Positions 32,479-49,559 of a DNA stretch of 64,000 bases are shown piece by piece. Both the position numbers and the translations under genes were made by a program. How positions within the stretch are numbered: position 1 is the stretch's first letter; every line of letters begins with the position of its first letter. The stretch comes from Acidimicrobiales bacterium (lineage in GTDB: Bacteria; Actinomycetota; Acidimicrobiia; Acidimicrobiales; JAVJTC01), in the NCBI GenBank assembly GCA_040219085.1, contig JAVJTC010000007.1:3995-67994 (forward strand). Reading direction: 5' to 3'. The notes below the pieces were generated by a model that was not told the DNA's origin, made no database searches, and saw only the letters and a list, made by a program, of their open reading frames with translations.

Positions 32479-33495
32479 ATGGCCTACCGCGCTGAGTACC
32501 TGTGGATCGACGGCACCGAGCCGACCGCCGAGATCCGCTCCAAGACGAAGATCCTCGCCGACGGCGACGAGCCGGGAATCTGGGGCTTCGACGGCTCCAG
32601 CACCAACCAGGCGACGGGTGACAACTCCGACGTCGTCCTGCAGCCGGTCTTCCAGTGTCCCGATCCCATCCGCGGTGGGGACAACATCCTCGTGATGTGC
32701 GAGACGCTCCTCACCGCCGACCTGTCACCGCACCCCTCCAACACCCGTGCCAAAGCGCTCGCGGCCCTCGAGAAGTACGCCGACCAGGAACCGATCTTCG
32801 GCCTCGAGCAGGAATACACGCTCATCAACCCGGAGACCGGTTGGCCCGCGGGATTCCCGCCCAACGGTTTCCCCGCCCCCCAGGGTCCCTACTACTGCGG
32901 TGTCGGAGCGCTCAAGATCCACGGCCGCGACCTCATCGAGGACCACACCACGGCCTGCATCGAGGCCGGACTCGCGATCTCGGGCACCAACGCCGAGGTC
33001 ATGCCCGGGCAGTGGGAGTTCCAGATCGGCCCGGTCGACACCGTCACGGTCGGTGACCACCTCTGGGTCGCCCGGTACCTCCTCTACCGCCTCGCCGAGG
33101 ATCACGGGGTGGAGGTCAGCATCGAGGCCAAGCCCATGAAGGGCGACTGGAACGGTGCCGGCATGCACACCAACTTCTCCACGAAGGCGATGCGCGAGGG
33201 TCCCTACGAGAACATCACCAAGGCGTGCGAGGCCATGGGCGCCTTCGGCAAGCCCGAGGAGCACCTCACGGGCTACGGCGTCGGCATCGAGGATCGCCTG
33301 ACCGGCGCCCACGAGACCCAGCGCTTCGACCAGTTCAGCTACGGCGTCTCGGATCGCGGCGCCTCGATCCGCATCCCCTGGCAGGTCGCCAAGGACGGCA
33401 AGGGCTACATCGAGGATCGGCGTCCCAACGCCAACGCCGACCCGTACGTCGTGTCGGCCCTGCTGACCAACACGATCTGTGAGGCGCTCGCCTGA
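32479..33495 (+). CDS. glnII: Glutamine synthetase type II (eukaryote-like GSII)
   Basis: AEYLWIDG, WGFDGSSTNQA, PQGPYYCGVG, NAEVMPGQWEFQIGP and KPMKGDWNGAGMHTNFS. ATG 32479 follows GAAGGAGAAG. Confidence 0.92.
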   Translation: MAYRAEYLWIDGTEPTAEIRSKTKILADGDEPGIWGFDGSSTNQATGDNSDVVLQPVFQCPDPIRGGDNILVMCETLLTADLSPHPSNTRAKALAALEKYADQEPIFGLEQEYTLINPETGWPAGFPPNGFPAPQGPYYCGVGALKIHGRDLIEDHTTACIEAGLAISGTNAEVMPGQWEFQIGPVDTVTVGDHLWVARYLLYRLAEDHGVEVSIEAKPMKGDWNGAGMHTNFSTKAMREGPYENITKACEAMGAFGKPEEHLTGYGVGIEDRLTGAHETQRFDQFSYGVSDRGASIRIPWQVAKDGKGYIEDRRPNANADPYVVSALLTNTICEALA

Positions 33496-33579: not shown

Positions 33580-34062
33580 TCAGTCTTCGCCGAGTTCGCC
33601 GAGCGCGCGGATTCCCTCGGCGAGCATGTGGGTGAGGTAGTCGTACACGGCGAGTTGGATGTGATCGGGGCTCCCCTCGACGAAGTCGTCGGGATCGGTG
33701 TCGGCGTCCACGTCCAGGACGGTGCCGATCACGAGTCTCGTGGCGTTGATGGCCCGGACCCATTCGTCGAGGGTGTCGGCGTCGATCTCGTCGTCGTCGA
33801 GGGTCGACGTGATGGTCTCGATCGCCGCAAGGCGGTTGTCCCGCAGGTCGTCGCCCACGAGCTCACGGTGGCGCGCCTCCATGGCGGGGTCCTGCGGGTA
33901 GGTCTCGGGGAAGAGACGCCACGCTCGCTGGTCCTCACCGAGGATCATCATCCGGGTCTGGTCCATGAGGTTCCCGAGGAGGGCGCGTTCGTCGTCACTC
34001 AGGTCCAGGCGCGCCGTGCCCGAGCCCGTCGCGGTGAACCAGATGGGGTCGCGTCGACTCAC
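33580..34062 (-). CDS. DUF2017 domain protein (ClpS-associated)
   Basis: GTGA overlap with the clpS stop. The acidic approximately 160-aa protein in the clpS-downstream position is typical of DUF2017 in Actinobacteria. Confidence 0.6.
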
Positions 34063-34355
34063 GATTCGCGTTCCATGGACGCCCACAGGCCGTGTTCCTG
34101 GAGGCGCAGCACGTCCATCTCCGCCTTCTCCCGGGGGCCGTCGGAGACGACCGCGCGCCCCTCGGTGTGGACCTGCATCATGAGCTTCTGAGCCTTGGCC
34201 AGGCTGTATCCGAACAGCTTCTGGAAGACCCAGGTCACGTAGTCCATGAGGTTGATCGGGTCGTCCCAGACGATGACGATCCACGGTCGGTCGACGTCGA
34301 CCTCTTCGTCGAGGTCCGTCTCGGAGATGGTGCTGGGCGAGGGACCCGGACTCAT
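34059..34355 (-). CDS. clpS: ATP-dependent Clp protease adaptor ClpS
   Basis: [41 protein letters not shown]. Confidence 0.9.
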
Positions 34356-35320
34356 CGCAGCGCGGGGGCGGGTGTCGTGTCGGCGGTGTCGCCGTCTGCG
34401 TCACCGGGGTCGGGGCCGTCGACGTCACCGGGGTCGAAGCCGGCCACCGCGAGGTGAAGACGCAGGACCACCGTCACCAGTGCGACGGATCCGGCGACGT
34501 GGAAGCCGACGAGTAGCACGGGGACGTCGTTGAAGTACTGGACGTAGCCGATCGCAGCCTGGGCGACGATGACCGCGAGGACGGTGTTCGACCGCGTGAT
34601 CTGTTCGGCCGAGGCGCCCTCACGGCGCAACACGACGGCGAGGCCGATGGCGACCAGGCAGAGCGCGACGACCGTCGACCCGTGGATGCGCGCGACGTCG
34701 GGCACGTCGAACCCGAGCCGTTCCACGTCCTCGTCGCCCCCGTGGGGACCCGAGCCGGTGACGATCGTCCCCGTCACGACGGCCCCGAGCGTGAGCAGGC
34801 TCGTGAGTCGGACCAGGCGGACCTGCGCGGGACCGTGCCCGTCGCGGGGCCGGTGGGCGCCGTCGGCGAGATGGTCGGGGATCCCCGACCGGTGGTGCAG
34901 GACCACCGCGTTCCAGATCAGGACGATGGACAACAGGAAGTGTGAGATCACGAGCCACGGGGTCAGGTGGTAGATCACGACGAGTCCGCCCAGGACGATC
35001 TGGCCGAGCACCCCCGCGACCAGTCCGAGGCTCCACAGCGTCAGATCCCGGCGACGTGGCCGACGGGCGAGTGACCCGAGCACGGCGGCGATCACCGCGA
35101 TCGACACGATCCCGGTGATGAGCCGGTTCACGAACTCGATCAGCGCGTGGTACTCGAGATCCGCGTGGAACTGGTCCTCTTCGCACGACGGCCAGTCCGA
35201 ACAACCGAGTCCCGAACCGGTCAGGCGGACCGCCGCGCCGGTGACGATGATCACGGCGAGGGCGACGAGTGCCACCACGGTGATCGCGCGGTAGCGCTCA
35301 GGAGAAATGCGCCGGCGCAT
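34352..35320 (-). CDS. ctaA: Heme A synthase (COX15/CtaA)
   Basis: [25 protein letters not shown] and paired His in TM helices ([15 protein letters not shown]). The start was moved to ATG 35320. Divergent from ctaB. Confidence 0.85.
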
Positions 35321-35442
35321 GACGTCGATCCTACGGCCGCCCGCTCCGGTGGGGCACACCGGGGCGACGATCGTCGAAACTCTCGCGGTACCTGCCCGCG
35401 TGCTTTGGTCAACCGGCCCCGACGGTCGTACCCTGCACGGAC

Positions 35443-36351
35443 GTGGAGGCCGTCATCGGAGTCGAGTCGAACGTCGGTGTCCGCCGACGGGTTGCGGCAT
35501 ATGTCGCGCTGACGAAGCCGCGGATCATCGAGCTGCTGCTCGTCACCACCGTGCCGACGATGATCGTCGCCGAAGAGGGCGTCCCCTCGGTGTGGCTCAT
35601 GATCGCCACCGTCATCGGCGGCACGCTCGCCGCCGGCGGCGCCAACGCCATCAACATGGTGGTGGATCGCGACATCGACGCCGTGATGCACCGCACCCGC
35701 AACCGCCCGCTCGTCACGGGCGAGGTGACCCCGACCGCGGCGCTGGTGTTCGCCCTCGGCCTCGAGGCCGTCTCGTTCCTGTGGCTGTGGGGTTTCGTCA
35801 ACCTCCTCAGCGCGGTGCTCGCCGTGAGCGCGACCGCGTTCTACGTGTTCGTGTACACGTTGTGGCTGAAGCGCCGCTCCACGCAGAACATCGTCATCGG
35901 GGGAGCGGCCGGGGCGGTCCCCGTGCTCGTCGGGTGGGCCGCCGTGACCAACGATCTGTCCTGGGCGCCGCTGGTCCTGTTCGCCGTGATCTTCTTCTGG
36001 ACGCCGCCCCATTTCTGGGCGCTCGCCATCCGTTACCGCGACGACTACTCGGCGGCGTCGGTGCCGATGCTGCCGTCGGTCGCTCCCGAGCGCGCCGTCG
36101 GGATCAACATCGTCGTCTACAGCGTCATCGTCGTCGGGCTGTCCGTCGTGTTCGGTCCCGTGGCCGGCCTCGGCATCGGCTACCTCGTGGCGGCGCTGGT
36201 CAGCGGGGCCGTGTTCCTGGCCTACGCCGTGCTGGTTCTGCGCTCTCCGACCGAGGCGAACGCGATGCGCCTGTTCGGCTGGTCGATCACCTACGTGGTC
36301 GTCCTCTTCGCGGCGATGGCCGTCGACGAGGTCGCGAGATCCGGACTGTGA
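35443..36351 (+). CDS. ctaB: Protoheme IX farnesyltransferase (heme O synthase)
   Basis: YVALTKPRIIELLLVTT, GGANAINMVVDRDIDAVMHRTRNRP and FFWTPPHFWALA. Confidence 0.92.
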   Translation: MEAVIGVESNVGVRRRVAAYVALTKPRIIELLLVTTVPTMIVAEEGVPSVWLMIATVIGGTLAAGGANAINMVVDRDIDAVMHRTRNRPLVTGEVTPTAALVFALGLEAVSFLWLWGFVNLLSAVLAVSATAFYVFVYTLWLKRRSTQNIVIGGAAGAVPVLVGWAAVTNDLSWAPLVLFAVIFFWTPPHFWALAIRYRDDYSAASVPMLPSVAPERAVGINIVVYSVIVVGLSVVFGPVAGLGIGYLVAALVSGAVFLAYAVLVLRSPTEANAMRLFGWSITYVVVLFAAMAVDEVARSGL

Positions 36352-36492
36352 GACCGATGTCGGGCCCCGGGATTGCGGATCGGCCCGTGGCGTTGTGTAC
36401 TGTCCCCCGCCGGAGGGAGTCCCACGGCGACGCCCTCCGCCGCGTAGCATCTCCGAAGCAGCCGACCGCGTGGTCGCACAGAACGTGAACGC

Positions 36493-38229
36493 ATGACTGC
36501 CACCGACACCGCCACCTCTGAGACCACCGACCCGGCCACACGGCCGGACGATGAGGTCTCCCCTACCCGCAACCCGGTCGACGCCTTCGTGTCGGTCCTC
36601 ACGACGGGTGATCACAAGGTCGTCGGCCGGCTCTGGATCGTCATGTCGCTGCTGGTCGGGGGATTCACGCTCGTCCTCGGCGCCCTCGTCGGCATCGAGC
36701 GCACCGACACCGCGGGTGTCGACGTCTTCGCAGGGCTCGAGGCCTACCTCCAGTTCTCGACGCTCTACCGGGTTCTGCTCGTGTTCGGATTCGTCGTGCC
36801 GCTGTTCATCGGCCTGGCCACGTACCTCGTTCCGCTGCAGATCGGTTCGCCGTCGGTGGCGTTCCCCCGGGCGGCGGCGGCTGCGTTCTGGGCGTGGCTG
36901 GTCGGCCTCGGCACCCTGATCACCGCCTGGGCACTCGACGGGGGCCTCGTCCCCGGTGGCGAGCCCGAGGCGGTCGAACTCTCGCTGCTGGCCTTCGGCG
37001 CCACGGTGATCGCACTTCTGCTGGCGGCGGCCGTCATCGTGACCACGGTGTTCACCCAGCGGGCCGAGGGCATGACGATGGACCGGGTGCCCCTGTTCTC
37101 GTGGTCGATGGTGGTCGCCGGTGGCCTCTGGGTGCTCTCGCTGCCGGTACTTCTCGCCAATCTCGGCGTCGCCTGGATCGACATCCGGGGCGAGGGCCCC
37201 ACGCTCTACGGCAACGGCGAGAACCTGTGGGGTCAGGTCGAGTGGGCCTTCGACCAGCCGCAGGTGTTCGCCTACCTGATCCCGGCGCTGGGCGTCATCG
37301 GTGAGGTGTTCGTCTCGGCCTTCCGGGCCCGCCAGCCGCTGCACTTCGTGATGCAGGGAGCGATCGGTGCGGTGGGCGTGCTCAGCTTCGGCGCCTACGC
37401 GCAGACGTTCTTCAACCCCACCGCCGACACCACGCCGCCGTACGTCGTGGCCGGAGTCGCCATCGCTCTGCCGGTGCTCGTTCTCCTCGGCGGTTGGGCC
37501 ACGCTCGCCCGTGACGCGGGCGGCCGGCCCACCCCCTCGCCCCAACTCGGGTTCGCTGTCGCGACCGTCCTCGCCGTGCTGGCAGCGGTAGCGGTCGGTG
37601 TCGTGAAGGTGCTCGGCGGACTGCTGGGCTTCCTGCGGGAGTTCGGCGCCGACACACAGAGTTGGCAGGCCGATCTCGACGACTTCCTCGACCCGTTCGA
37701 GGACCTGCGGGGCTCGGCCATCGAGTCGGGGCTGCTGAACGTCGTCGTGCTCGCCGGGTTCATCGGTGCGGTCGCCGGCCTGTACCACTGGGCACCCAAA
37801 CTCTTCGGCCGCCGCCTCAACCCGCTCGTGGGCGGTCTCGCGGCGCTGCTGATCCTCGTGGGGACACTCGCACTCGTGGTGCCCGATGTGATCACCGGGT
37901 TCATGGACCAGCCCGATCCGCTCGCGGCGGGATTCCCGCTCCTCGGAGACTTCCGTGACGGCGTCGAGATCCTCAACGCGATCTCGATGATCGGCGCCTT
38001 CGTGGTGTTCGCCGGACTCGCCCTGGTCGCTCTCGACGTACTCGGTGCCATCGCCGTGCCCGGAGCGGGCGACGGCGACGATGCCGACGACCTCGGTGGT
38101 GTCACTCTCGAGTGGTCCACCACCAACCCGCCGCCGCCGGGCAACTTCGCAGCGGCTCCGGTGGTACGGAGCGAGGCGCCGCTTCTCGATCCGCCCGCCG
38201 GGGACGCGACCGACGGGGAGGACGCCTGA
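36493..38229 (+). CDS. Heme-copper oxidase subunit I-like protein lacking all canonical heme/CuB ligands
   Basis: Collinear similarity to the window's own CtaD: [16 protein letters not shown] vs [44 protein letters not shown] vs [39 protein letters not shown] vs GLYFWWPKMFG. Ligand positions are Y, Q, F, Q and T, and there is no HFH motif. Confidence 0.8.
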   Translation: [578 protein letters not shown]

Positions 38230-38867
38230 TGGCCACCGCCACGATGGACCCGGGCACGACCGCTCCGCCGCCGGGTCGATTCCTCGCCCCGATTCTGCCC
38301 CGTCGACGGACGCTGCTCGTCGCCACTGCGCTCGGTTCGGGCGCCACCATCATGTTCTTCGCGGGGATGCTGGGGGTCTACCTCTCCGAGCGGGCCGACT
38401 TCCTGCGTGACAATCCCGGAGGCAGCTGGATCCCGTCGTCGGTGACGGTGGAGCTCACCGCTCCGTCGGTCATCGCCTGGACGCTGCTGTTGTCGGTGGT
38501 GACGATGCAGTGGGCCGTGTACTCCGCAGCACGCGACGACCGACCCCACACGCTCATCGCAACCTCGGTGACGGCCCTGTTCGGCGTGGCCGTGATCAAC
38601 CAGTTCGTGTTCCTCTACAAGCAACTCGGACTCGAGATCGACGCAGGTGGCGTCAGCACCGCTCCGGTTCTCATCTACGCCGTGACAGGCACGTTCCTGT
38701 TGATCCTCGTGGTCGCACTCACCCTGCTCGCGACCATGTCGTTCCGGGCCCTGGCCGGTGGAGACCTCCGGTCCCACGTCGACGGCATGGCCGCGGCGTC
38801 GCTGTACTGGTACGTGATGGTCTTCGTCTACATGATCGTCTGGGTGGCGATCTTCATAACCAAGTAG
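38229..38867 (+). CDS. Cytochrome c oxidase subunit III-like membrane protein (divergent paralog)
   Basis: TGATG overlap with the upstream gene. Five TM helices. The C-terminus AAASLYWYVMVFVYMIVWVAIF compares with canonical CtaE VGLYWHFVDIVWIVIF. Confidence 0.65.
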   Translation: MATATMDPGTTAPPPGRFLAPILPRRRTLLVATALGSGATIMFFAGMLGVYLSERADFLRDNPGGSWIPSSVTVELTAPSVIAWTLLLSVVTMQWAVYSAARDDRPHTLIATSVTALFGVAVINQFVFLYKQLGLEIDAGGVSTAPVLIYAVTGTFLLILVVALTLLATMSFRALAGGDLRSHVDGMAAASLYWYVMVFVYMIVWVAIFITK

Positions 38868-38872
38868 CTGCC

Positions 38873-39745
38873 ATGTTGACTCACGGATTCAAACTCTTCT
38901 TCGGCTTCACGGCGATCGCCGTGGTCGCCGCCATCATCTACGGCGTCGCGAGCGGTGACACGACGGCGGGGAACTACCTCGGCGTGGTCGACCGCCAGGC
39001 GTGGAAGGGCGCCATCAGCCTCGGTTGGCAGGGCGGCGTCGGCGATCACACGGGCTACGTCATCCTCTGGCTCCTCGCCATCTCCGGCGGTGTCGTCGCG
39101 CTGGTCCTCGCCTACTGCCGTGACGCGGACCCCGACGCCGTCGCCGAGGTCATGCAGACCGACGGCGTACCTCCGGCCCAGGCCCCCACCCGCCCGGACG
39201 CCTGGCCCCTGATCGGCGCTCTCGCCGTCGGTGTCACGATCATCGGTCTCGTCACCCACGCGGCCATCTTCGTCATCGGTGTGATCCTGCTGGGCGTGGT
39301 CGCCCTGGAGTTGATCCTGTCCACCTGGGCCGACCGGGCCACCGGCGACCCCGCCACCAACGCCGAGATTCGGGGCCGCGTGGCCCGTCCGATCGAGGTC
39401 CCGGTGCTGGGGGCCGCTGCGATCGCCGTCGTCGTGCTGGGCGGATCGCAGGTCATGCTCGCCGTGAGCAAGGCCGCAGCCGTGTGGGTCCTGACGGGTG
39501 TCGCGACGGTCGTCTTCGTCGGTGCCATAGCGCTGGCGGCGATGCCCAAGCTCAGCCGGCCGATCATCGGCGGTGCGGTGGCCCTCATCGTCGTGGCCTC
39601 TGTCGTCGGCGGCATCGTCGGCGCAGTCGTGGGCATCCGCGACATCGAAGAGCACCACGACGAGGAGCATTCCGAGGAGATCGAAGAGGATGCGGCGGCC
39701 GTCGGGGTGGCCGATCTCGTCGGCACCGTGGAGGACGAGTCGTGA
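38873..39745 (+). CDS. Polytopic membrane protein of unknown family with an acidic C-terminal tail
   Basis: About seven hydrophobic segments. The tail is RDIEEHHDEEHSEEIEEDAAAV..VEDES. It starts 5 nt after the upstream stop, and its own stop overlaps the ctaC GTG (GTGA). Confidence 0.6.
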   Translation: MLTHGFKLFFGFTAIAVVAAIIYGVASGDTTAGNYLGVVDRQAWKGAISLGWQGGVGDHTGYVILWLLAISGGVVALVLAYCRDADPDAVAEVMQTDGVPPAQAPTRPDAWPLIGALAVGVTIIGLVTHAAIFVIGVILLGVVALELILSTWADRATGDPATNAEIRGRVARPIEVPVLGAAAIAVVVLGGSQVMLAVSKAAAVWVLTGVATVVFVGAIALAAMPKLSRPIIGGAVALIVVASVVGGIVGAVVGIRDIEEHHDEEHSEEIEEDAAAVGVADLVGTVEDES

Positions 39746-41061
39746 GCAACGCGTCCTCGCGTCATCGCGCGGCGTCTGCCGACTTGGCGCACCGGGTTGA
39801 CGAGGTCCACACTGCGGATGTGCCTCCCCGTCGACGTCCCATCGGCCGGACCGCTGCCCTCGTGGCGACCGTCGCCCTTCTGGCCACGGCCTGCGGCAAC
39901 AAGCCCCTCGACACCTTCGATGATCAGGGTCCGGCAGCCCGCGATATCAACAGCGTGATCCTGCCCGTGTTCGGCATCGCGATCATCGTCCTGATTCTGG
40001 TCTCCGGTGCGATCCTGTTCACGGCCTGGCGCAACCGGGTCTCCGCCAAGGACGCCGAGGCCGCTGCCCTGGCCAACGGCACCGATGCCGACCCGACGGG
40101 CCTCTACGGCGACGACGAGTTCCCCGAGCAGGTCCATGGCAACACCACGCTGGAGATCGGCTGGACGGTGATTCCCACGGTGATCCTCTCGGTCGTCGCC
40201 GTGTTCACGCTCATCGGGATCTTCAAACTGAACGACGTCAGCGCGGACGAAGGGGACCTGCGGGTGACCATCGTCGGCCAGCAGTGGTGGTGGGAGTACC
40301 AGTACCACCTCGACGGCGATACCGACACGCCGCCGGACTTCGTCAACGCGAACGAGCTCGTCATCCCCGCCGGCCAGCAGGTTCCGCTGGTGGTCACCAG
40401 CCGCGACGTCATCCACTCGTGGTGGATCCCCCAGCTCAACGGCAAGCGCGACGCGCTCCCCCTGGGGACCTCGCCCTGGACGATCGAGGCCGACGACCCG
40501 GGCCGCTACAAGGGCGTCTGCACCGAGTTCTGTGGACTCTCGCACGCGTACATGCGCATGTTCACCATCGCCCTCTCCCCCGAGGACTGGGACGCGTGGG
40601 CGGAGAACCAGATCCTGCCCGCCACCGTCCCCGAAGTCGGAACACCCGAGGACGCCGGTTGGCAGATCTACCAGGCCAACTGCGCCCAGTGCCACGTCAT
40701 CACCGGACTGACCGACACGAACCTCGACGGCGAGATCGACGACTGGGACATCTACGACGGGCCCAACCAGATCAGCCCGGCACTGCTCTCGGGCGCGGCG
40801 CCGAACCTCACCCACTTCGCCAGCCGGACCACCTACGCGGGATCGATCTTCGACCTCTACGTGGACCGGGCCGAGGGGAGCGACTACCTCGACGTGGCGG
40901 CCGAGGGCGACGTCGACGTCGGCCAGCTCACGGCGTGGTTGCGCAACGCTCCCGCCGAGAAGGCCAACCGTTGGCAGGACGGGCGCGGCATGCCGGCGTT
41001 CACCAACCTGACGCCCGACGACATCACCAACCTGATCGCCTTCCTCACGAGCCTCGACTGA
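39742..41061 (+). CDS. ctaC: Cytochrome c oxidase subunit II with fused cytochrome c domain (caa3-type)
   Basis: Lipobox LLATAC, the CuA site HSWWIP...CTEFCGLSHAYM, and C-terminal heme motif CAQCH with ..GMPAF. Confidence 0.9.
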   Translation: MSNASSRHRAASADLAHRVDEVHTADVPPRRRPIGRTAALVATVALLATACGNKPLDTFDDQGPAARDINSVILPVFGIAIIVLILVSGAILFTAWRNRVSAKDAEAAALANGTDADPTGLYGDDEFPEQVHGNTTLEIGWTVIPTVILSVVAVFTLIGIFKLNDVSADEGDLRVTIVGQQWWWEYQYHLDGDTDTPPDFVNANELVIPAGQQVPLVVTSRDVIHSWWIPQLNGKRDALPLGTSPWTIEADDPGRYKGVCTEFCGLSHAYMRMFTIALSPEDWDAWAENQILPATVPEVGTPEDAGWQIYQANCAQCHVITGLTDTNLDGEIDDWDIYDGPNQISPALLSGAAPNLTHFASRTTYAGSIFDLYVDRAEGSDYLDVAAEGDVDVGQLTAWLRNAPAEKANRWQDGRGMPAFTNLTPDDITNLIAFLTSLD

Positions 41062-41110
41062 CCATGAACTGGTACCTGGGAGCCCCGCAGATGCACCGGA
41101 GAGACGCCTG

Positions 41111-43138
41111 ATGGCGATCACCGAAGAACCCCTCCAGCTGACGACCGGCGACACGGTCGCCACGGTCGAACGCCCGATGGGCGCGCTCACCCGGCCCCAC
41201 GGGGACAAGGGTTGGCGCAGCTGGCTGTTCACCGTCGACCACAAGCGCATCGGCATCATGTACGGCGCCGTGTCGATCTTCTTCTTCGTCGTGGGCGGCA
41301 TCCAGGCCCTGATCATCCGCCTCCAGCTCGCCCGTCCCGAGGGTCGTATCGTCTCGGAGGACCTGTACAACCAGCTGTTCACCATGCACGGCGTCACGAT
41401 GCTGTTCCTTGTGGGCATCCCACTCGGTGCCGCCTTCGCCAACTACCTGTTGCCGTTGCAGATCGGTGCGCGTGACGTCGCCTTCCCGCGTCTCAACGCC
41501 TTCAGTTTCTGGTGCTTCCTGTTCGGCGCGCTGTTCCTCAACTCGTCGTGGTTCCTCGGCGGGGCGCCCGACGGTGGCTGGTTCGCGTACGCGCCGAACA
41601 CGGGCGTCGCGTTCTCGCCGAGCGACGGAATGACGTTCTACGCGCTGGGACTCCAGATCCTCGGTATCGCATCGCTCGTCTCGGCGGTCAACCTGATCAC
41701 GACGGTGCTCAACATGCGGGCGCCCGGCATGTCCATGTTCAAGATGCCGATCTTCACGTGGATGATGCTCGTCGTGCAGTTCCTGCTGCTGTTCGCCATG
41801 CCGGTCATCGCGGTGGCGCTGTTCTTCTTGACCTTCGACCGCCTCTACGACGCCAACTTCTTCAACGTCGCCGCCGGCGCCGATCCGCTGCTGTGGCAGC
41901 ACCTCTTCTGGATCTTCGGTCACCCCGAGGTCTACATCCTCATCCTTCCCGCCTTCGGCGTGATCTCCGAGATCATCCCGACCTTCAGCCGAAAGCCGAT
42001 CTTCGGTTACCCGTTCATGGTGTTCTCCGGCATCGTCATCGGCTTCATGGGCTGGGGCGTGTGGGCCCACCACATGTTCACGTCGGGCATCGGCCCGGTG
42101 TCGGTGGCCGCGTTCAGCCTCTCGACGATGTTCATCGCGGTGCCCACCGGCGTGAAGGTGCTCAACTGGGTCGCGACGATGTGGGGTGGTCGCCTCCGCT
42201 TCACCACGGCGATGCTGTTCGCTTCGTCTGTCGTGGCCATGTTCACGATCGGCGGCTTGTCGGGCGTGACCCACGCGGTCGCTCCGGCGGACACCCAGCA
42301 GACCGACACCTACTACATCGTCGCCCACTTCCATTACGTGATCTTCGGCGGCATCATCCTCGGGCTCTTCGGCGGCCTGTACTTCTGGTGGCCCAAGATG
42401 TTCGGCCACATGTTGAACGAGAAGCTCGGCAAGGCCAACTTCTGGACCATGCTGATCGGCTTCAACCTGACCTTCTTCCCGATGCACATCCTGGGCCTGC
42501 AGGGAATGGCGCGGCGCTACCACACATACTCGGCCGAGGATGGTTTCGGGGCGCTCAACCTGTTGGTCTCGATCGGGTCGTTCGTCATCGCCCTCAGCGT
42601 CGTCTTCTTCGTGATCAACATCCTCTACAGCCGCAAGAAGGCGAAGACGTCGCCGCCGCCGGGACCGGACCCATGGGACGCGCGCAGCCTCGAATGGAGC
42701 GTCGCGTCGCCGACCCCGGTCCACAACTTCGACACGATCCCGACGGTGGAGCACCAGGACGACTGGTGGCACCGCAAGTACGGGTACGACGAGAACGGCA
42801 AGGTCGTCCGCCTGGCCTCGGCGGCCGAGATCGCCCAGAAGGGTGACAGGACCGACGTTCATCTGCCGTCGCCGTCGTACTGGCCGCTCGTCCTCGCCGG
42901 AGCGCTCCCGGTTCTCGCGTACGCCCTGATGTACTCGCTGTGGCTGCTCGTCCCGGCGGGCCTGCTCATCGTCGCGTCGCTGTTCGGTTGGGCGCTCGAG
43001 CCCGTCGACGATCCGGATGTGCCCCATGGGGGCCACGGCGGCGATGGTCATGGTGGCCCCGACGGCGATCCCGACGGCGACGTGACGGCGGCGCTCGACG
43101 AGGCCTCGACCACCGAGGAGGGCGCTCCCGTTGGCTGA
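41111..43138 (+). CDS. ctaD: Cytochrome c oxidase subunit I (with an approximately 100-aa C-terminal extension: 2 TM plus a His/Asp-rich tail)
   Basis: All ligands are present: FTMHG, WIFGHPEVY, WAHHMF and VAHFHYV. The extension is SYWPLVLAGALPVLAYALMYSLWLLVPAGLLIVASLFGWALEP...HGGHGGDGHGG. Confidence 0.95.
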   Translation: MAITEEPLQLTTGDTVATVERPMGALTRPHGDKGWRSWLFTVDHKRIGIMYGAVSIFFFVVGGIQALIIRLQLARPEGRIVSEDLYNQLFTMHGVTMLFLVGIPLGAAFANYLLPLQIGARDVAFPRLNAFSFWCFLFGALFLNSSWFLGGAPDGGWFAYAPNTGVAFSPSDGMTFYALGLQILGIASLVSAVNLITTVLNMRAPGMSMFKMPIFTWMMLVVQFLLLFAMPVIAVALFFLTFDRLYDANFFNVAAGADPLLWQHLFWIFGHPEVYILILPAFGVISEIIPTFSRKPIFGYPFMVFSGIVIGFMGWGVWAHHMFTSGIGPVSVAAFSLSTMFIAVPTGVKVLNWVATMWGGRLRFTTAMLFASSVVAMFTIGGLSGVTHAVAPADTQQTDTYYIVAHFHYVIFGGIILGLFGGLYFWWPKMFGHMLNEKLGKANFWTMLIGFNLTFFPMHILGLQGMARRYHTYSAEDGFGALNLLVSIGSFVIALSVVFFVINILYSRKKAKTSPPPGPDPWDARSLEWSVASPTPVHNFDTIPTVEHQDDWWHRKYGYDENGKVVRLASAAEIAQKGDRTDVHLPSPSYWPLVLAGALPVLAYALMYSLWLLVPAGLLIVASLFGWALEPVDDPDVPHGGHGGDGHGGPDGDPDGDVTAALDEASTTEEGAPVG

Positions 43139-43754
43139 CGCGACGATCTCGGCGCCCGCAGCGGCGACCGATCACCACGACGATCATCCGCCCACGACCA
43201 CCGGCATGTCCAACACGAAGTTGGCCATGTGGTTGTTCCTCGGCTCGGAGTGCCTGCTCTTCGGCGCCCTGATTTCGACCTACATTCTCAACAAGTCCCG
43301 CCTACCCGAAGGTGAACTGGGACCCGAGGACGTCTTCGACATCCCGTTCACGTCGGTCTCGTCGTTCGTCCTGCTCATGAGTTCGCTCACGATGGTGCTG
43401 GCGGTGTCGAACATCACACGGGGCGACCTCGAGCGGTTCCGTATCTGGGTCGCCACCACCGCGATCCTCGGCGGGGCCTTCGTTGCCAGCCAGGTCTACG
43501 AGTTCACCGTCTTCTACGAAGAAGGCCTCGGCTACACCACCAACATCTTCAGCTCGAGCTTCTTCACCCTCACCGGGTTCCACGGCGCCCACGTGATCAT
43601 CGGCATCATCATGTTGATGTCGCTGCTCGTGCTGTCCAACCAGGGCCGACTCGGTCAGCAGAACGCCGAAACGGTCGAGATCGTCGGCTTGTACTGGCAC
43701 TTCGTCGACATCGTCTGGATCGTCATCTTCACGCTCATCTACCTGTTCCCCTGA
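43131..43754 (+). CDS. ctaE: Cytochrome c oxidase subunit III
   Basis: LAMWLFLGSECLLFGALI, FTLTGFHGAHVIIG and LYWHFVDIVW. The start is TTG 43131 or an internal ATG about 43206. Confidence 0.9.
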   Translation: MADATISAPAAATDHHDDHPPTTTGMSNTKLAMWLFLGSECLLFGALISTYILNKSRLPEGELGPEDVFDIPFTSVSSFVLLMSSLTMVLAVSNITRGDLERFRIWVATTAILGGAFVASQVYEFTVFYEEGLGYTTNIFSSSFFTLTGFHGAHVIIGIIMLMSLLVLSNQGRLGQQNAETVEIVGLYWHFVDIVWIVIFTLIYLFP

Positions 43755-43794
43755 TCCCGCCACCCAGTCCGAACACCACCAGGCAGGAAACGAA

Positions 43795-44127
43795 ATGACC
43801 GCCACCGACGTCGAGCACGCTGAAAGCCACGAGGACGGCCACGCGCATCCCTCGGACTGGGACTACGCGCGTATCGCACTGATCCTGGGTGTCCTCACGG
43901 CCATCGAGGTCTTCACGTACTTCGAGTCGGTTCACAATCTCGGCACGAACGCGCTGCGGGTGATCCTGGTCGTGTTGATGGTGCTGAAGTTCGTCTACGT
44001 CGGTGCATGGTTCATGCACCTCAAGTTCGACAAGCCGATCCTGCGCAACCTCTTCGTCATGGGGCTGAGTCTCTCGTTGCTCGTGTACCTGGGGATGTTG
44101 ACGGCGTTCCGGGTCTGGCCCACCTGA
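43795..44127 (+). CDS. ctaF: Cytochrome c oxidase subunit IV (prokaryotic COX4/CtaF type)
   Basis: About 110 aa with three TM helices. LVVLMVLKFVYVGAWFMHLKFD is typical of COX4_pro. Confidence 0.8.
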   Translation: MTATDVEHAESHEDGHAHPSDWDYARIALILGVLTAIEVFTYFESVHNLGTNALRVILVVLMVLKFVYVGAWFMHLKFDKPILRNLFVMGLSLSLLVYLGMLTAFRVWPT

Positions 44128-44128
44128 C

Positions 44129-45115
44129 GTGACCGCCCTGCTCGCTGCCGACGTCGACGTCTGGGAGTTCGAGCTCCACCCCGAGGTGTGGCTGATCGTC
44201 GCCGCCGCGATCGGGATCGGCTGGTATGTCGTGAAGGTGATCGCGCCCCACGCCGTGCCGGCGGGCACCCCGGCGGTCACCACCGCCCAGAAGCGCTACT
44301 TCGTCGCGGCCCTCGCGGCGCTCTACATCGCGTCCGCGTGGCCTGTCCACGACATCGCCGAGGAGTACCTCTACTCGGTGCACATGATCCAGCACCTGCT
44401 GATCACCTTCGTCGTGCCGCCCCTGTTCCTCCTCGCGACCCCGACGTGGCTGGCCCGCCTCGTCGTCAGCGAGGACGGTGAGTCCGGTGTCTGGGTCAGG
44501 CGGCTGGCGCACCCGGTCGTCGCGGGAGTCCTGTTCAACGCGGTGATCGCGCTCACGCACCTGCCGTGGGTGGTCAACACCTCCGTCGAGAACGGCCCTT
44601 TCCACTACTTCGTCCATCTCGCGGCGTTCGCTGTGGCCATGCTGATGTGGATCCCCGTGGCCGGGCCTCTACCGGAGCTCCGACTCAGCCTGCCCGGGCA
44701 GATGATCTTCCTGTTCACGATGTCGATCATCCCGACCGTGCCCGCAGGGTTCCTCACCTTCGCCGAGGGCGCTCTGTACGACTCCTATGATCACGACGTC
44801 CGCCTGTGGGGAGTGTCGATCCAGACAGACCAGCAGACCGCCGGGCTGATCATGAAGGTGGTCGGTGGGTTGTTCCTGTGGACCATCATCGCCATCTTGT
44901 TCTTCCGCTGGGCGAAGCAGCACGAAGCGCCGCGGCGACCGGGACGGACGGTCGCGTCCGGTGCGGCGGTGGGCGAGTCGGCGGACTCAACCGGGTCATC
45001 TCCGCCCCCAGAGCGGACCGGATCGGACGCGCTGACGTTCGACGAGGTGGAGCGGGCGTTCCGCGAGTCGGGCCCTGCGCCCGTCGAGCAGGGGCGGGCA
45101 ACCGGCGACGGGTGA
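44129..45115 (+). CDS. ctaG: Cytochrome c oxidase assembly factor CtaG (Bacillus type, Caa3_CtaG)
   Basis: YSVHMIQHLLITFVVPPLFLLATP, polytopic, in the terminal position of the cta operon. Confidence 0.8.
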   Translation: MTALLAADVDVWEFELHPEVWLIVAAAIGIGWYVVKVIAPHAVPAGTPAVTTAQKRYFVAALAALYIASAWPVHDIAEEYLYSVHMIQHLLITFVVPPLFLLATPTWLARLVVSEDGESGVWVRRLAHPVVAGVLFNAVIALTHLPWVVNTSVENGPFHYFVHLAAFAVAMLMWIPVAGPLPELRLSLPGQMIFLFTMSIIPTVPAGFLTFAEGALYDSYDHDVRLWGVSIQTDQQTAGLIMKVVGGLFLWTIIAILFFRWAKQHEAPRRPGRTVASGAAVGESADSTGSSPPPERTGSDALTFDEVERAFRESGPAPVEQGRATGDG

Positions 45116-45139: not shown

Positions 45140-45316
45140 CCTGTTCGATGCCATGTAGTCAGCTAGCTACGCTGCGTGGCAGTTCGTCCACGTCGGTGTT
45201 GTTCGTGTTGCTACTGGGGGAGCCGGGGGAATAGTGGGCCTTGCGGCTCATGTCGAACGACCTATATCGTCTCCCAGTGCTGTCGACCGGCAGCCCCTAC
45301 GTCACTCTGAGTAGGG

Positions 45317-46024
45317 ATGACCAGCGGGATGGGACCGATGAGGCCACCGGAACTCAGTGACGTCACGTTCCGTCCTGCAGCTGACGCGGCTGAACGCGAC
45401 CGTGGTCGCCGCCTGCAGGCCGCCGTCTACCGGTCGCGTGGTTTCGTCACGGGCATGGAGCCGGGGGCCATGCTCGTCGACGACTACGTCGAGATCGCCA
45501 CCTACTTCGTCGCGGTCACCGGCGGCGGTGAGATCATCGGCTCGGCGCGTCTCATTCCAGGCGAGTTGGTCGTCCCGCCGACCCTGAACACCTTCCACCT
45601 CGATCCGCCCTCGCGGGAGATGGTCCGTACGGTGGGCCTCGACCGGATCGCCGAGGTCGCCTCCCTCGCAACGGATCCCACCGCCCCCTATCCGTCGTTC
45701 GGCGTATCCGCCGGCTTGTACCGGGCGATGCTCCACCACTCATTGGGCTCCGGCCGCCGCCACGACGTCTGGGTCGCTGCGGTGGAACCGGCGCTCCTGC
45801 GCATCCTCCACCGGGTGATGCGCATCCCACTCGACGTCATCGGGGACCCGGGCCCCTACTTCGGCGCTGAGCGGACACCCATCCGCATCGACCTCGTTCC
45901 GGGAATGACCCACGTCCGCCGCCACGAACCGGAGGTGTGGGACTTCTTCCAGACGGGAATGGTCATCGACCTCACGAGGTCGGATGCGCCCGCTGCCGCC
46001 CGCGCCGACCGCACCGAGGGCTGA
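45317..46024 (+). CDS. GNAT-fold N-acyltransferase resembling N-acyl amino acid synthase (FeeM) / autoinducer-synthase-like proteins
   Basis: About 235 aa. AAERDRGRRLQAAVYRSRGFV..., ..YFVAV..GEIIGSARLI.. and ..IAEVASLA.. match my memory of the FeeM / exosortase-associated acyltransferase layout. This has not been verified by HMM. Confidence 0.4.
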   Translation: MTSGMGPMRPPELSDVTFRPAADAAERDRGRRLQAAVYRSRGFVTGMEPGAMLVDDYVEIATYFVAVTGGGEIIGSARLIPGELVVPPTLNTFHLDPPSREMVRTVGLDRIAEVASLATDPTAPYPSFGVSAGLYRAMLHHSLGSGRRHDVWVAAVEPALLRILHRVMRIPLDVIGDPGPYFGAERTPIRIDLVPGMTHVRRHEPEVWDFFQTGMVIDLTRSDAPAAARADRTEG

Positions 46025-46070
46025 CGGAGTCCGGGGTCGGCTGTGGCACAGTCACGCAACCGCCATCCTC

Positions 46071-49000
46071 ATGATCGGACCCGCGCGTGCCGATCCTGAC
46101 ACGGTCGTGAAGACAACTACCTGGCGCTGGGTGCTCGCAGGGGGCACGGCCGCCGCGCTCATCGGCGTGGCGGGAGGAGTGTTCGCCGCGCTCGCACGAG
46201 GTCTCGTGGTGGTCGGCTTCGTCGTCGTGATCGTGACGGCGCTGCGCCGCACCGCGGCACTCCAGACCCGCCCGTGGATGGTCGTCGCTGCCGGCGGCCT
46301 CGTCACCACCCTGTCCGCGCTCATCCGCGTCGTCCACGGTGCCATCGTCGACGAGAGGTACCCCTACCCGTCTCCCGCGGACCCCGTCGTCTTCGTGGGT
46401 TACGGTCTCATCGCCGCCGGTGGGGTGTGTTTCCTGAGGGCGCGTACGAAGACGCCCAGCATCGACGCCGGCGTCGATGCCGCACTGGTCACCGGGCTCG
46501 CTCTGTTCCCGCTCGCGACCGTCGTGATGCCCCAGTACTTCACCGACTCGTCGGTGGTGATCTACGAACGCGCGGGCACCGCCTTCTACCTCCTGCTCGT
46601 CGGCGTCCTCGTCTTCGTCACGGCCCGGTTGTCCTTCGGGCCGGGCGAACGTAACCAGTCGTACTACCTCCTCGCCGTCGCCGGAGCGATCCTGATCTCC
46701 AACGACGTCTTCCTGCGCCTCGACGCGGCGGGCTACGACCAGGCCCTCGACGCAGCGTTCACCATCGCCCCGTTCGCCTTCGTTTTCGCCGCGGCGGCGA
46801 TCACGCACCCGGGAGCGGCGCGCCTCACCTCCGAACCGGACTTCAGGCCGCGCCGCCTCACGTCGCGACGCATCGTCTTGTTCTCCGCTGTTCTCGTGAG
46901 CGGCCCTCTCATGCTCGTGGCCGCGGCGCTGGACTGGACCGACGCCAACGAGATCGTCGTGGCCGTCTGGTCGGGTTTGCTCTTCGTGCTCGTCGTCGTC
47001 CGCACGATCGGCCTCGTGCGCGGCCAGCAGAACATGGCCGATCGTGAGCGGGTCCTGCGAGATGCCAGCGCCGCCCTGGTGAACGTGAACACCCCGGCTG
47101 AAGCCGATGACGTACTGTGCCGGGCCGCGCTCGGCCTCGTTCCCGCGCGGCCGGTGGCGAGCGTCGCCATCATCGACAACGACCGACCTGACGGCACGTT
47201 CACCACCCTCGTACGGGACCGGCGATCCGCCATCGTCAGGTCCGAGCAGAGTCGCCCCGCGTCCCTGCCCGCCGAAGTCCGCGAGTCGGTCCACTTCGAA
47301 GAGGTCGGGCCCGCCGCGAACGAGGACGTCCTCGCCGCGCCACTCGACGGCGAGGGCCACCGGCTCCTCGTTGTGAGTACCACCTCGCTCCCGCCGATGT
47401 CGCGGGACGCACTGTTCTCACTCGCCGAGGTCGGCCGCCTCGCCCTCGAGTCGCTGTCGACCCGCGAGGAGCGGCACCGGCGACGCAGTGACCGACGACT
47501 CCGTGCGCTCGTGGAGCAGTCATCCGACGTCTTGATGGTCCTCGACGGGGACCACCGGATCTCGTTCATCTCGCCATCGTGTCGGCGCCTCATCGGCCGC
47601 CCGGACAACGAGATCATCGGGCGGGTCGTCCTGGATCTGGTTCACCCGGAGGAACGACGCGCGGTCGAACGCCTGCTGGCGCGGCACCGCGACCAGGAGA
47701 TGGTCGAAGCCCGCCTGCGCACGGATGCCACATCCGACGACCGCTGGTTCGAGGTGACGTGTCGGGACCGCAGTGCGACCGCCGATGTCGGCGGCGTCGT
47801 CGTCACGGCTCGGGACGTGACTGAGCAACGGCGCGCGGAGCAGCAGATCGAACGCAGCGAGGCCCGGTTCCGGTCGCTCGTCCAGCACACCGGTGACGTC
47901 GTCTGCGTGACCGATACCCAGGGCGTCATCACCTATGTCAGCCCGGCCATCGAGGAGGTCCTCGGCTACAGCGCCGCCGACGTGACCGGCGCAGACCTCT
48001 TCGACGTTCTCGACGAGGGTCCGGCCACCCACCGCCTCTCCAACGCCGTCCGCCTCGGGTTGACCGGTCGCCTCGACGTCGAGGTGCAGACGACGGCGCG
48101 CGACGGCCTCGTACGGATCCTCGACGTGACGGTGACCGACCTGCGCAACGACCCCGCGGTCGACGGGGTCGTGCTCAACATCCGCGACGTGACCGTGCGC
48201 CGCCAACTCGAACAGGACCTGCGCCACAAGGCCCACCACGACGAGCTCACCGGCCTCGCCAACAGGACACTGTTCACCGAGCGACTGGAAGAGGCCCTGC
48301 GCAACGAGGCCTACTCGGGTCTCGTCGCTGCCCTCTTCATCGACCTCGACGAGTTCAAGGACGTCAACGACAGCCTCGGCCACGTCGTCGGTGACGTGGT
48401 GCTGGGGAGCATCGCAGCCCGACTCCAGTCGAGCCTGCGTCTCGGTGACATGGCGGCGCGATTCGGTGGCGACGAGTTCGCGGTCCTTCTGACCGGCGTG
48501 TACGGCGAGTCCGAGATCGATGCCATCGCCGACCGCCTCCTCGCGAGGATCTCCGAGCCGCTAGCCGTCGATGGACGGTCCCTCGACATCACGGCATCCA
48601 TCGGGATCGCCGTCGACGAGGACCGCACGTCGGAGGCGTCCGACCTCCTGCGTGCCGCTGACGTCGCGATGTACCGGGCCAAGGAGGCGGGCAAGGGTCG
48701 TCACGAGATCTTCGAGCAGCACATGCAGGACCGGGCCCTCGAACGCCTCGAGCTGCGCACCGCGCTCGGCCGGGCCATCGACGCGGACCAACTCGAGCTG
48801 CACTACCAACCGATCGTCGACCTCAAGTCCACAGCGGTGTGCGGTGTCGAGGCGCTGCTGCGCTGGCAGCACCCCACCCGCGGTTGGATAAGTCCGGGTG
48901 CGTTCATCCCCCTCGCCGAGGAGACGGGTCTCATCGTCCCGATCGGCCTGTGGGTCCTGGAGAGAGCCTGTCGCGACGTCGCTCGTTGGCACGCAGAGGG

Positions 49001-49559
49001 GCACACCCCCTACCTCTCGGTCAACGTCTCGGGCCGTCAGCTGGTGGAACCCGACGTCGTCAACGCGATGTCGCGGATCGTCGTGGAGTCGGGCCTGGAT
49101 CCCAAGGCGATCGTTCTCGAGGTGACCGAGACGGTCCTGCTACCCGACGAGCCCCGCACCCGCCAACACATCGCCGAGTTCCGACGCCGTGGGTTCCGCG
49201 TGGCCATCGACGACTTCGGGACGGGCTACTCGTCGCTGCAGTACCTGCACCGCTTCACGCCTGAGATCATCAAGATCGACCGTTCGCTGGTCGGTCCCCT
49301 GGAGCACGGCGACGACGGAGCGATGGCCGAGGCCGTCATTGACCTGTCCCGCCGGGTGGGCGCCGAGGTGGTCGCGGAGGGGATCGAGACGCCCCGCCAG
49401 GTCGATCAGCTGCGGATACTCGGCGCACGGTACGGCCAGGGCTTCCTGTTCGGTCGCCCGGCTCCGATCTCCGATGGCTTCCCGGTCATCTCCTATGGCG
49501 ACCCGCAGATCCCGCAGACCCCCGGCTTCGAGCGTCGCAAGTCGACAGAGTCCCACTGA
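46071..49559 (+). CDS. Membrane sensor protein: polytopic N-terminal domain, PAS repeats, GGDEF, EAL
   Basis: About nine TM helices. PAS-like blocks lie around 47.5-48.2 kb. The GGDEF domain carries an I-site (RLGDMAARFGGDEF). The EAL domain has EALLRW, EVTET, DDFGTGYSSL and QGFLFGRP. Confidence 0.9.
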   Translation: MIGPARADPDTVVKTTTWRWVLAGGTAAALIGVAGGVFAALARGLVVVGFVVVIVTALRRTAALQTRPWMVVAAGGLVTTLSALIRVVHGAIVDERYPYPSPADPVVFVGYGLIAAGGVCFLRARTKTPSIDAGVDAALVTGLALFPLATVVMPQYFTDSSVVIYERAGTAFYLLLVGVLVFVTARLSFGPGERNQSYYLLAVAGAILISNDVFLRLDAAGYDQALDAAFTIAPFAFVFAAAAITHPGAARLTSEPDFRPRRLTSRRIVLFSAVLVSGPLMLVAAALDWTDANEIVVAVWSGLLFVLVVVRTIGLVRGQQNMADRERVLRDASAALVNVNTPAEADDVLCRAALGLVPARPVASVAIIDNDRPDGTFTTLVRDRRSAIVRSEQSRPASLPAEVRESVHFEEVGPAANEDVLAAPLDGEGHRLLVVSTTSLPPMSRDALFSLAEVGRLALESLSTREERHRRRSDRRLRALVEQSSDVLMVLDGDHRISFISPSCRRLIGRPDNEIIGRVVLDLVHPEERRAVERLLARHRDQEMVEARLRTDATSDDRWFEVTCRDRSATADVGGVVVTARDVTEQRRAEQQIERSEARFRSLVQHTGDVVCVTDTQGVITYVSPAIEEVLGYSAADVTGADLFDVLDEGPATHRLSNAVRLGLTGRLDVEVQTTARDGLVRILDVTVTDLRNDPAVDGVVLNIRDVTVRRQLEQDLRHKAHHDELTGLANRTLFTERLEEALRNEAYSGLVAALFIDLDEFKDVNDSLGHVVGDVVLGSIAARLQSSLRLGDMAARFGGDEFAVLLTGVYGESEIDAIADRLLARISEPLAVDGRSLDITASIGIAVDEDRTSEASDLLRAADVAMYRAKEAGKGRHEIFEQHMQDRALERLELRTALGRAIDADQLELHYQPIVDLKSTAVCGVEALLRWQHPTRGWISPGAFIPLAEETGLIVPIGLWVLERACRDVARWHAEGHTPYLSVNVSGRQLVEPDVVNAMSRIVVESGLDPKAIVLEVTETVLLPDEPRTRQHIAEFRRRGFRVAIDDFGTGYSSLQYLHRFTPEIIKIDRSLVGPLEHGDDGAMAEAVIDLSRRVGAEVVAEGIETPRQVDQLRILGARYGQGFLFGRPAPISDGFPVISYGDPQIPQTPGFERRKSTESH

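Follow-up and report, generated by a model that had tools for sequence, protein, structure and literature searches.

Why should a cytochrome c oxidase operon carry, between its heme-synthesis genes and its structural genes, what looks like a second set of oxidase subunits? The question is raised by a caa3-type (cta) locus in a 64,000-nucleotide (nt) stretch of contig JAVJTC010000007.1 from an Acidimicrobiales bacterium (assembly GCA_040219085.1; G+C ~68%), hereafter the window. Open reading frame (ORF) listing with Pfam and NCBIfam scans gave the order ctaA on the minus strand, then ctaB, C1L, C3L, X290, ctaC with a fused cytochrome c, ctaD, ctaE, ctaF and ctaG, where C1L, C3L and X290 (together, the block) denote a COX1-like, a COX3-like and a 290-residue membrane protein. 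A first-pass annotation of the sequence had read the locus as Bacillus-style with a three-gene insertion coupled to ctaC, and had proposed that the block is an accessory module of the terminal oxidase, such as an assembly scaffold, a proton-path or supercomplex adaptor, or a regulatory decoy. We place the block within the heme-copper oxidase system as a pseudoenzyme branch, and the sequence comparisons below lean slightly towards its being a selected, non-catalytic structural partner of caa3 that is made together with the oxidase.

The three proteins encoded between ctaB and ctaC

C1L (36493-38229, + strand, 578 amino acids) is an established COX1 homolog with the 12-transmembrane-helix fold, on the combined evidence of Pfam, NCBIfam, an AlphaFold2 model and Foldseek. 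It scored 130 bits on PF00115, where the cutoff is 34.8 bits and the true CtaD of the operon reached 526 bits, and aligned over its full length with this neighbouring CtaD at 31% identity. The model (predicted local distance difference test, pLDDT, 82; predicted template-modelling score, pTM, 0.88) matched solved subunit I structures at TM ~0.78 and E 6e-21. These include C. glutamicum CtaD, and it is in the 12-helix fold (TM 0.78) that C1L resembles CtaD of the mycobacterial and Corynebacterium bcc-aa3 oxidases (6adq_F, 7q21_D), with the C1L profile reaching 250 bits to 6adq_F.

The heme-copper oxidase superfamily is defined by invariant metal ligands. Of what characterises a functional A-family subunit I, C1L has the fold and the PF00115 homology, but not the six histidines, the cross-link tyrosine or the D- and K-channel residues. 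At the six invariant histidine positions the window protein carries Y, Q, Q, T, L and N. The helix II heme-a histidine is replaced by tyrosine, GHPEVY reads DQPQVF, AHHMF reads AQTFF, and the HFH region of helix X has become LLN, behind an insertion.

These replacements recur in a ligand survey of 118 close homologs of the window type. Glutamine occupies the first CuB histidine position in 114 and the second in 115, phenylalanine stands in for the cross-link tyrosine in 115, the E286-like residue is Q or M, and the heme a3 histidine is L, V or M. Not one of the 118 retains the pair of low-spin heme histidines, the CuB histidines are missing from all of them, and the former helix II position varies between Y, H, S, Q and G. 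The D-channel is affected in the same way (S, G or A at the D132-like position, A at the N139-like position), as is the K-channel, where the K362-like residue is L or F and the threonine is also gone. The heme-propionate arginine pair is replaced too, while a novel arginine beside the former helix II histidine is invariant (117 of 118). Structural motifs are retained, namely PLQIG..AFPR, PLFxW, the helix VI tryptophan and TLEW. Relative to A-family CtaD, C1L thus lacks the six histidines, the cross-link tyrosine, the E286-like glutamate, the D/K residues and the arginine pair, has gained the helix II arginine and has evolved about three times faster.

At the level of sequence, C1L is shown to be unable to ligate heme a, heme a3 or CuB in the canonical way and to be without the known proton pathways. 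Having neither canonical ligands nor a D or K pathway, C1L cannot act as an oxygen reductase or proton pump of a known kind. With every canonical D- and K-channel residue lost, the "proton-path" role suggested in the first-pass annotation seems unlikely.

The positions of the former third CuB histidine and the helix X heme histidine were also seen to co-vary (most frequent pairs: R/D, n = 22; P/E, n = 18; T/Q, n = 14). Such pairs suggest compensating polar contacts that may fill the empty cofactor pocket.

C3L (38229-38867, + strand, 212 amino acids) scored 32.3 bits on PF00510 over residues 41-210, above the cutoff of 23.8 bits for subunit III. It shares 23% identity with the local CtaE and matched COX3 entries in the PDB with E values down to 3e-8. 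By these comparisons the protein is a divergent paralog of oxidase subunit III.

X290 (38873-39745, + strand, 290 amino acids) had no Pfam or NCBIfam match of its own, and among 30 of its orthologs there were two weak matches to PF12270 (best E 0.0015). Its AlphaFold model (pLDDT 75) has about seven transmembrane helices, and the top Foldseek match, at a weak E of 0.61, was 7q21_F (CtaF, "Cytochrome c oxidase polypeptide 4"). An exhaustive profile search widened the family to 1200 clusters at 50% identity, at least 699 of them at E <= 1e-10. Among these homologs P0281 matched PF12270 with 31.1 bits against a cutoff of 26.9, across profile positions 5-124 of 132 and within its N-terminal ~125 residues, and P0302 reached 25.4 bits on the same model. 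P0281 also matched C. glutamicum CtaF ("Cytochrome c oxidase polypeptide 4") in the PDB. X290 is thus a probable paralog of the actinobacterial subunit IV (CtaF), by a link that is transitive through the X profile and P0281.

The family resembles actinobacterial CtaF (PF12270; 7q21_F, 8hcr_H) over the first ~125 residues of P0281 and similar relatives. It differs in that X290 is twice as long, with about seven transmembrane helices, an insertion in loop 1 and an acidic, His-rich tail where relatives have a cupredoxin. The conserved motifs are SLGWKGGVGDHxGY and AWADRATGDP. In the window the C-terminus is a 37-residue acidic, His-rich tail (EEHHDEEHSEEIEED) without a cupredoxin and hence without a type-1 copper site, and the tails of orthologs are likewise rich in His, Asp and Glu. 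From the helix count and the positive-inside rule we infer that the tail is periplasmic. A direct PDB profile search with X290 returned just low-complexity matches to acidic ribosomal P1 tails and was set aside. We also considered whether X proteins are CtaF-CtaC fusions, with the C-terminal three helices and cupredoxin taken from subunit II. However, hhalign of 40 long X proteins against CtaC gave a probability of 0.55% (E 0.1); the cupredoxin cores were in register, with nothing supported beyond the shared fold.

Synteny, junctions and selection across Acidimicrobiia

To survey the distribution of the block, one genome per species was scanned, followed by tblastn with all ten window proteins. 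Approximately 42 C1L-bearing Acidimicrobiia loci were found, each with the order ctaA(-) ctaB C1L C3L X ctaC ctaD ctaE ctaF ctaG up to its contig limits. Carriers include Aquihabitans sp. G128, which has a complete genome, and metagenome-assembled genomes assigned to Iamia, Rhabdothermincola, Ilumatobacteraceae and Ca. Poriferisocius. The order holds even where C1L identity to the window drops to ~30%, in loci whose CtaD is still 58-75% identical. In the caa3 operons of Gemmatimonadota, Chloroflexota and Proteobacteria recovered in that scan, ctaB adjoins ctaC and there is no block.

The comparison across genomes that the first-pass annotation had called for therefore came out in its favour: in every C1L-bearing Acidimicrobiia locus examined, the block sits at a fixed position with conserved overlaps. 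Its view that this is not an unrelated insertion also holds, given that each gene is a paralog of an oxidase subunit (I, III or an actinobacterial-type IV) and that the block has a fixed place and is under purifying selection. The word insertion itself is apt only in comparison with Bacillus; in the class itself, the block is ancestral.

Each of the tight junctions described initially matches a direct reading of the sequence. The C3L ATG overlaps the C1L stop (TGATG, 38227-38231), a 5-nt gap (ctgcc, 38868-38872) separates C3L from X290, and the ctaC GTG overlaps the X290 stop (GTGA, 39742-39745). Across 31 related loci the median gaps were 177 nt for ctaB/C1L, -1 for C1L/C3L, 14 for C3L/X and -4 for X/ctaC, and the tightness of the block junctions exceeds chance. 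The C1L/C3L overlap is conserved as -1 or -4 nt, the X/ctaC overlap is kept as ATGA or GTGA in most loci, and the ctaD/ctaE overlap of -8 nt is conserved as well. In many loci an in-frame stop just upstream confines the ctaC start to the ATG that overlaps the X stop. In the window alone, ctaC has an alternative start at a GTG near 39818, which would leave a 72-nt gap and no GTGA overlap.

The sole large gap of the cluster is the 141-nt spacer between ctaB and C1L (36352-36492, + strand). Because of this spacer, and its median length of 177 nt elsewhere, the arrangement suggests that the structural operon begins with the block, which would then not be coupled to ctaB, and the spacer is the likely site of the structural-operon promoter. 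A sigma-70 consensus scan of the spacer gave no match and an Rfam scan gave none either; promoter, terminator and Rfam scans inside the cluster found nothing above chance. Coupling to ctaC, as proposed in the first-pass annotation, would fit the conserved overlaps, and a consensus scan showed no terminator-like site between the block and ctaC. The tie is not strict: in L084, a metagenomic contig, another gene takes the place of ctaC after the block. Published transcript values for an Acidimicrobiia isolate (PMC11697166) are given at the level of KO identifiers only, at which C1L is indistinguishable from coxA.

The block is clearly under purifying selection. We estimated the ratio of nonsynonymous to synonymous substitution rates (dN/dS) from six moderately diverged pairs; in five of them it was 0.09-0.18 for C1L, 0.06-0.13 for C3L and 0.08-0.12 for X290, and in the sixth 0.27-0.33. 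These values are similar to those of ctaC and ctaG, and the block has evolved about three times faster than ctaD and ctaE. It does not have the hallmarks of pseudogenes, as ORFs are intact, dN/dS is low and no C1L-bearing locus lacks the block within its contig limits.

Other features of these loci were noted in passing. Just upstream of ctaA, and on the minus strand, the window carries genes for ClpS (34059-34355, PF02617) and a DUF2017 protein (33580-34062). Two distant loci with cupredoxin-bearing X proteins, L081 and L083, have this pair too, there directly preceding ctaB without an intervening ctaA. The neighbourhood is therefore conserved well beyond the cta genes, and the block gene order in both loci is as in the window. 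In Aquihabitans sp. G128 (NZ_CP077604.1), ctaA (6717-7692) and ctaD (13218-15195) were each recovered as two adjacent tblastn pieces, which suggests frameshifts or sequencing errors in functional oxidase genes.

Cofactor loss in relatives and the origin of the block

Relatives of the window proteins retain cofactor sites to differing degrees. In the C1L ortholog of L083 the helix II histidine and both helix X histidines are kept, and in that of L084 the two low-spin heme ligands; the CuB ligands are gone from both. A search seeded with the L083 protein recovered a second C1L subfamily, in which 67 of 120 members have both low-spin heme histidines and three have all three heme histidines. No member of this subfamily retains the CuB site; 3 of the 120 have a stray histidine at one of the three CuB positions.

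The X family shows a similar range. About one third of its best representatives are 330-410 amino acids long and carry a C-terminal cupredoxin-like domain, and six to seven of these cupredoxin-bearing proteins keep the type-1 copper motif C-x2-H-x3-4-M. The motif-keeping proteins score on Pfam Cupredoxin_1 and Copper-bind and align with the amicyanin copper loop; P0281, P0332 and P0382 are X relatives with such a type-1 copper site.

Four stages can be arranged from these proteins: heme with type-1 copper, heme with a degenerate cupredoxin, a degenerate cupredoxin without heme ligands (e.g. L050, L060) and, in the window, neither ligands nor cupredoxin. Because relatives keep a bis-His heme site, and a type-1 copper cupredoxin on the third protein, the window represents the end-point of a graded loss of cofactors.

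Membrane-anchored blue-copper proteins are found beside other oxidases, as sulfocyanin SoxE in the SoxM complex, auracyanin, and rusticyanin in the rus-cox operon. The relatives of X290 are like these proteins (compare PMC8239418) in having an amicyanin-like type-1 copper domain, a membrane anchor and oxidase genes as neighbours. They differ in that the anchor is a CtaF-like one of seven transmembrane helices, and in that the copper ligands are gone from most X members and the whole domain from the X290 of the window.

The loss of cofactors also sets C1L apart from the nitric oxide reductases (NORs). In PMC11214002, the cNOR, qNOR, eNOR, sNOR, gNOR and nNOR families are, like C1L, members of the superfamily with altered active sites and no cross-link tyrosine. 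They are described there as enzymes that keep both hemes and the metal site (FeB or CuB), whereas C1L has no cofactor ligand at all.

Where the block came from is hinted at by two lines of comparison. A C1L hidden Markov model (HMM) scored 222-256 bits on the co-located CtaDs and ~260-290 bits on the CtaDs of a second Acidimicrobiia oxidase, of ctaC-ctaD type. The third gene of the block is of the actinobacterial CtaF type, and the ctaF of the functional operon is a Bacillus-type COX4_pro. Together, the C1L profile scores on the second oxidase and the CtaF type of the third gene are a hint that the block may have descended from an actinobacterial aa3-type oxidase rather than arisen as a recent tandem copy. 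In the PDB, however, C1L and CtaD both rank mycobacterial CtaD first. A recent tandem duplication of the neighbouring ctaD is an unlikely origin for C1L, with the HMM slightly favouring the second-oxidase CtaDs.

Possible functions and the surrounding genes

How might such a block work? Transcription would start from the ctaB/C1L spacer and run through a C1L-C3L-X290-ctaCDEFG operon, perhaps ending at a hairpin at 45174-45193. The conserved stop/start overlaps may couple synthesis of C1L to that of C3L, and of X290 to that of CtaC. C1L, C3L and X290 could then come together as subunits I, III and IV do, giving a subcomplex with the shape of an oxidase but no cofactors, which might lie beside the active caa3 as a pseudo-dimer partner or a supercomplex scaffold. 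The tail of X290, acidic, His-rich and probably periplasmic, may serve as a docking or metal-binding arm. More tentatively, and with somewhat less confidence than in a structural partner as such, we suggest that the block could be a class-wide "ghost oxidase", a full set of subunit I, III and IV paralogs converted stepwise from a redox protein to a cofactor-free partner that is obligatorily in or beside caa3.

Several points weigh against a structural partnership. The association of the block with caa3 is one of genomic linkage. Furthermore, L084 reads ctaB-C1L-C3L-X-cupredoxin and then a convergent SURF1-like gene, not ctaC, and the co-operonic linkage of the block to the structural genes is therefore not absolute. 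The connection of X290 to CtaF is transitive, as the window protein has no Pfam match and a Foldseek E of 0.61. Rate covariation across 18 loci was high in raw form (X290-ctaD 0.90), but residuals were weak or mixed and C1L distances saturated. Finally, the strict glutamine cluster at the former binuclear centre, with the invariant arginine, could point to a specific activity rather than a mere scaffold.

Of the other explanations, we think it unlikely, if worth serious attention, that C1L, C3L and X290 form an assembly module, a transient template or chaperone in oxidase biogenesis rather than permanent subunits, for example by keeping hold of CtaC or CtaE or by delivering heme A or copper. 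The position of the block, flanked by the genes for heme A synthesis (ctaA, ctaB) on one side and the structural genes on the other, fits such a role, as does its adjoining a SURF1-like heme-a insertion factor in L084. The His-, Asp- and Glu-rich C-terminal tails of X290 and its orthologs are typical of metal-binding arms, although they are variable and could be plain low-complexity regions. Some relatives retain a heme site and a copper site, but window-type C1L has no canonical heme ligand and so no site for a heme carrier. A dedicated CtaG is already present, and selected subunits of 12 and five transmembrane helices seem excessive for a chaperone. The gene adjoining the block in L084 (4169-4816, minus strand) has a C-terminus (NHLSYAVQWFLFA) that looks like SURF1/Shy1, a heme-a insertion factor.

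It is less likely still that the block has acquired an independent membrane function, as an ion or small-molecule channel, a transporter or a sensor, whose genomic position is a historical leftover. Buried polar residues are indeed conserved (the near-invariant Q-P-Q of helix VI, a glutamine in helix VII, the new arginine of helix II, and Asp, Glu, Gln or Asn at the former helix X histidine), and more tightly than a passive scaffold might need. Folding alone would, however, be enough to conserve polar clusters that fill old cofactor pockets; no canonical proton pathway is left, and synteny and the ctaC overlaps persist across the class, even at ~30% C1L identity. Residual redox activity, with non-canonical cofactor binding and electron transfer to caa3, is improbable. 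The relatives with a bis-His site and a type-1 copper cupredoxin do suggest ancestral electron transfer, and the glutamines at the CuB positions are conserved, but the low-spin histidine pair is absent from all 118 homologs with a variable helix II position, the propionate arginines are lost and X290 has no cupredoxin domain. Decay of a dead duplicate heading for loss is effectively excluded. It would account for the loss of all catalytic residues and for the threefold faster evolution relative to ctaD and ctaE, yet it is refuted by synteny, conserved junctions and a dN/dS of ~0.1, with ORFs intact across hundreds of lineages and substitutions that are conserved rather than random.

A selected structural partner of caa3 would have consequences beyond this locus. 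If the module belongs to the caa3 complex, the oxidase of Acidimicrobiia would be built on an architecture not known so far. The large, selected, ligand-free branch, with at least 699 linked X clusters, widens the known uses of the COX1 fold, and C1L is a natural experiment in how a 12-helix cofactor protein folds with its pockets filled by side chains. No description of a ligand-less subunit I family was found by full-text searching or in papers on how these oxidases evolved, a coverage that excludes most subscription journals. Public annotations of C1L and X are "cbb3-type cytochrome c oxidase subunit I", "cytochrome c oxidase subunit 1" and "hypothetical protein". Such misnaming of C1L means that terminal oxidases are over-counted in reconstructions of Acidimicrobiia metabolism and that a high-affinity cbb3 oxidase may be wrongly inferred. 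Oceans, soils, sponges and wastewater all harbour abundant Acidimicrobiia, and the association with caa3 is directly testable in cultured carriers (Aquihabitans, Iamia, Ilumatobacteraceae).

The remainder of the locus is a conventional caa3 operon. In Bacillus subtilis, ctaA is followed by ctaB-ctaCDEFG, and the window shares with that locus the divergent ctaA, ctaB, a CtaC with lipobox and cytochrome c, a C-terminally extended CtaD, CtaE, a COX4_pro CtaF and a Caa3_CtaG; the difference is the three added paralogous genes between ctaB and ctaC. All domains expected of a Bacillus-type caa3 locus were found by Pfam and NCBIfam in the expected order, and together with the ORF listing they bear out the gene order and identities initially proposed. 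Heme A synthase (ctaA, 34352-35359, minus strand; PF02628 COX15-CtaA, E 2e-21) is divergent from ctaB and has an equivalent position in related loci. Heme O synthase (ctaB, 35443-36351, + strand) scored 412 bits on the NCBIfam heme o synthase model, above its cutoff.

Downstream of the block, all on the + strand, ctaC (39742-41061) encodes subunit II with a fused cytochrome c and the lipobox LLATAC (COX2_TM, COX2 and Cytochrom_C domains; CoxB, 183 bits). Its N-terminus (39742-39900) has a lipoprotein signal (RRRPIGRTAALVATVALLATAC) after ~25 non-conserved residues. The functional subunit I gene, ctaD (41111-43138), has every ligand motif (PF00115, 526 bits; CtaD_CoxA, 695 bits, above cutoff). 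Its C-terminal extension (42750-43138) adds ~120 residues with two further predicted helices and a His/Gly/Asp-rich tail (HGGHGGDGHGGPDGDPDGD), the histidine-rich character of which resembles the tail of X290. CtaD residues 572-630 gave a weak match to PF12270 (subunit IV). Subunit III is encoded by ctaE (43131-43754; PF00510, 70 bits), in an 8-nt overlap with ctaD, and the Bacillus-type subunit IV by ctaF (43795-44127; PF03626 COX4_pro, 38 bits). The caa3-type copper insertion factor gene ctaG (44129-45115; PF09678 Caa3_CtaG, 146 bits) is followed directly on its 3' side by the terminator-like hairpin (45174-45193, + strand; consensus scan), a possible operon end. Terminator-like sites in the region are no more numerous than by chance, and this hairpin is suggestive by position alone.

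Several other genes and ORFs of the window were also noted. Long ORFs antisense to the cta genes (e.g. 35251-37788, minus strand; up to 845 amino acids) are typical of a G+C content of 68%, have no homology support and should not be called genes. At 32479-33495 (+ strand) lies a short glutamine synthetase of 338 amino acids (Gln-synt_N and Gln-synt_C), apparently of type II. Directly after the cta operon, 45317-46024 (+ strand) encodes a 235-residue FeeM-like N-acyl amino acid synthase (PF21926, 32 bits). The next gene (45984-49559, + strand) encodes a 1191-residue membrane protein in whose translation PAS-like repeats, a GGDEF motif (RFGGDEFAVLL) and EAL-type motifs can be recognised, and which looks like a cyclic-di-GMP signalling protein.

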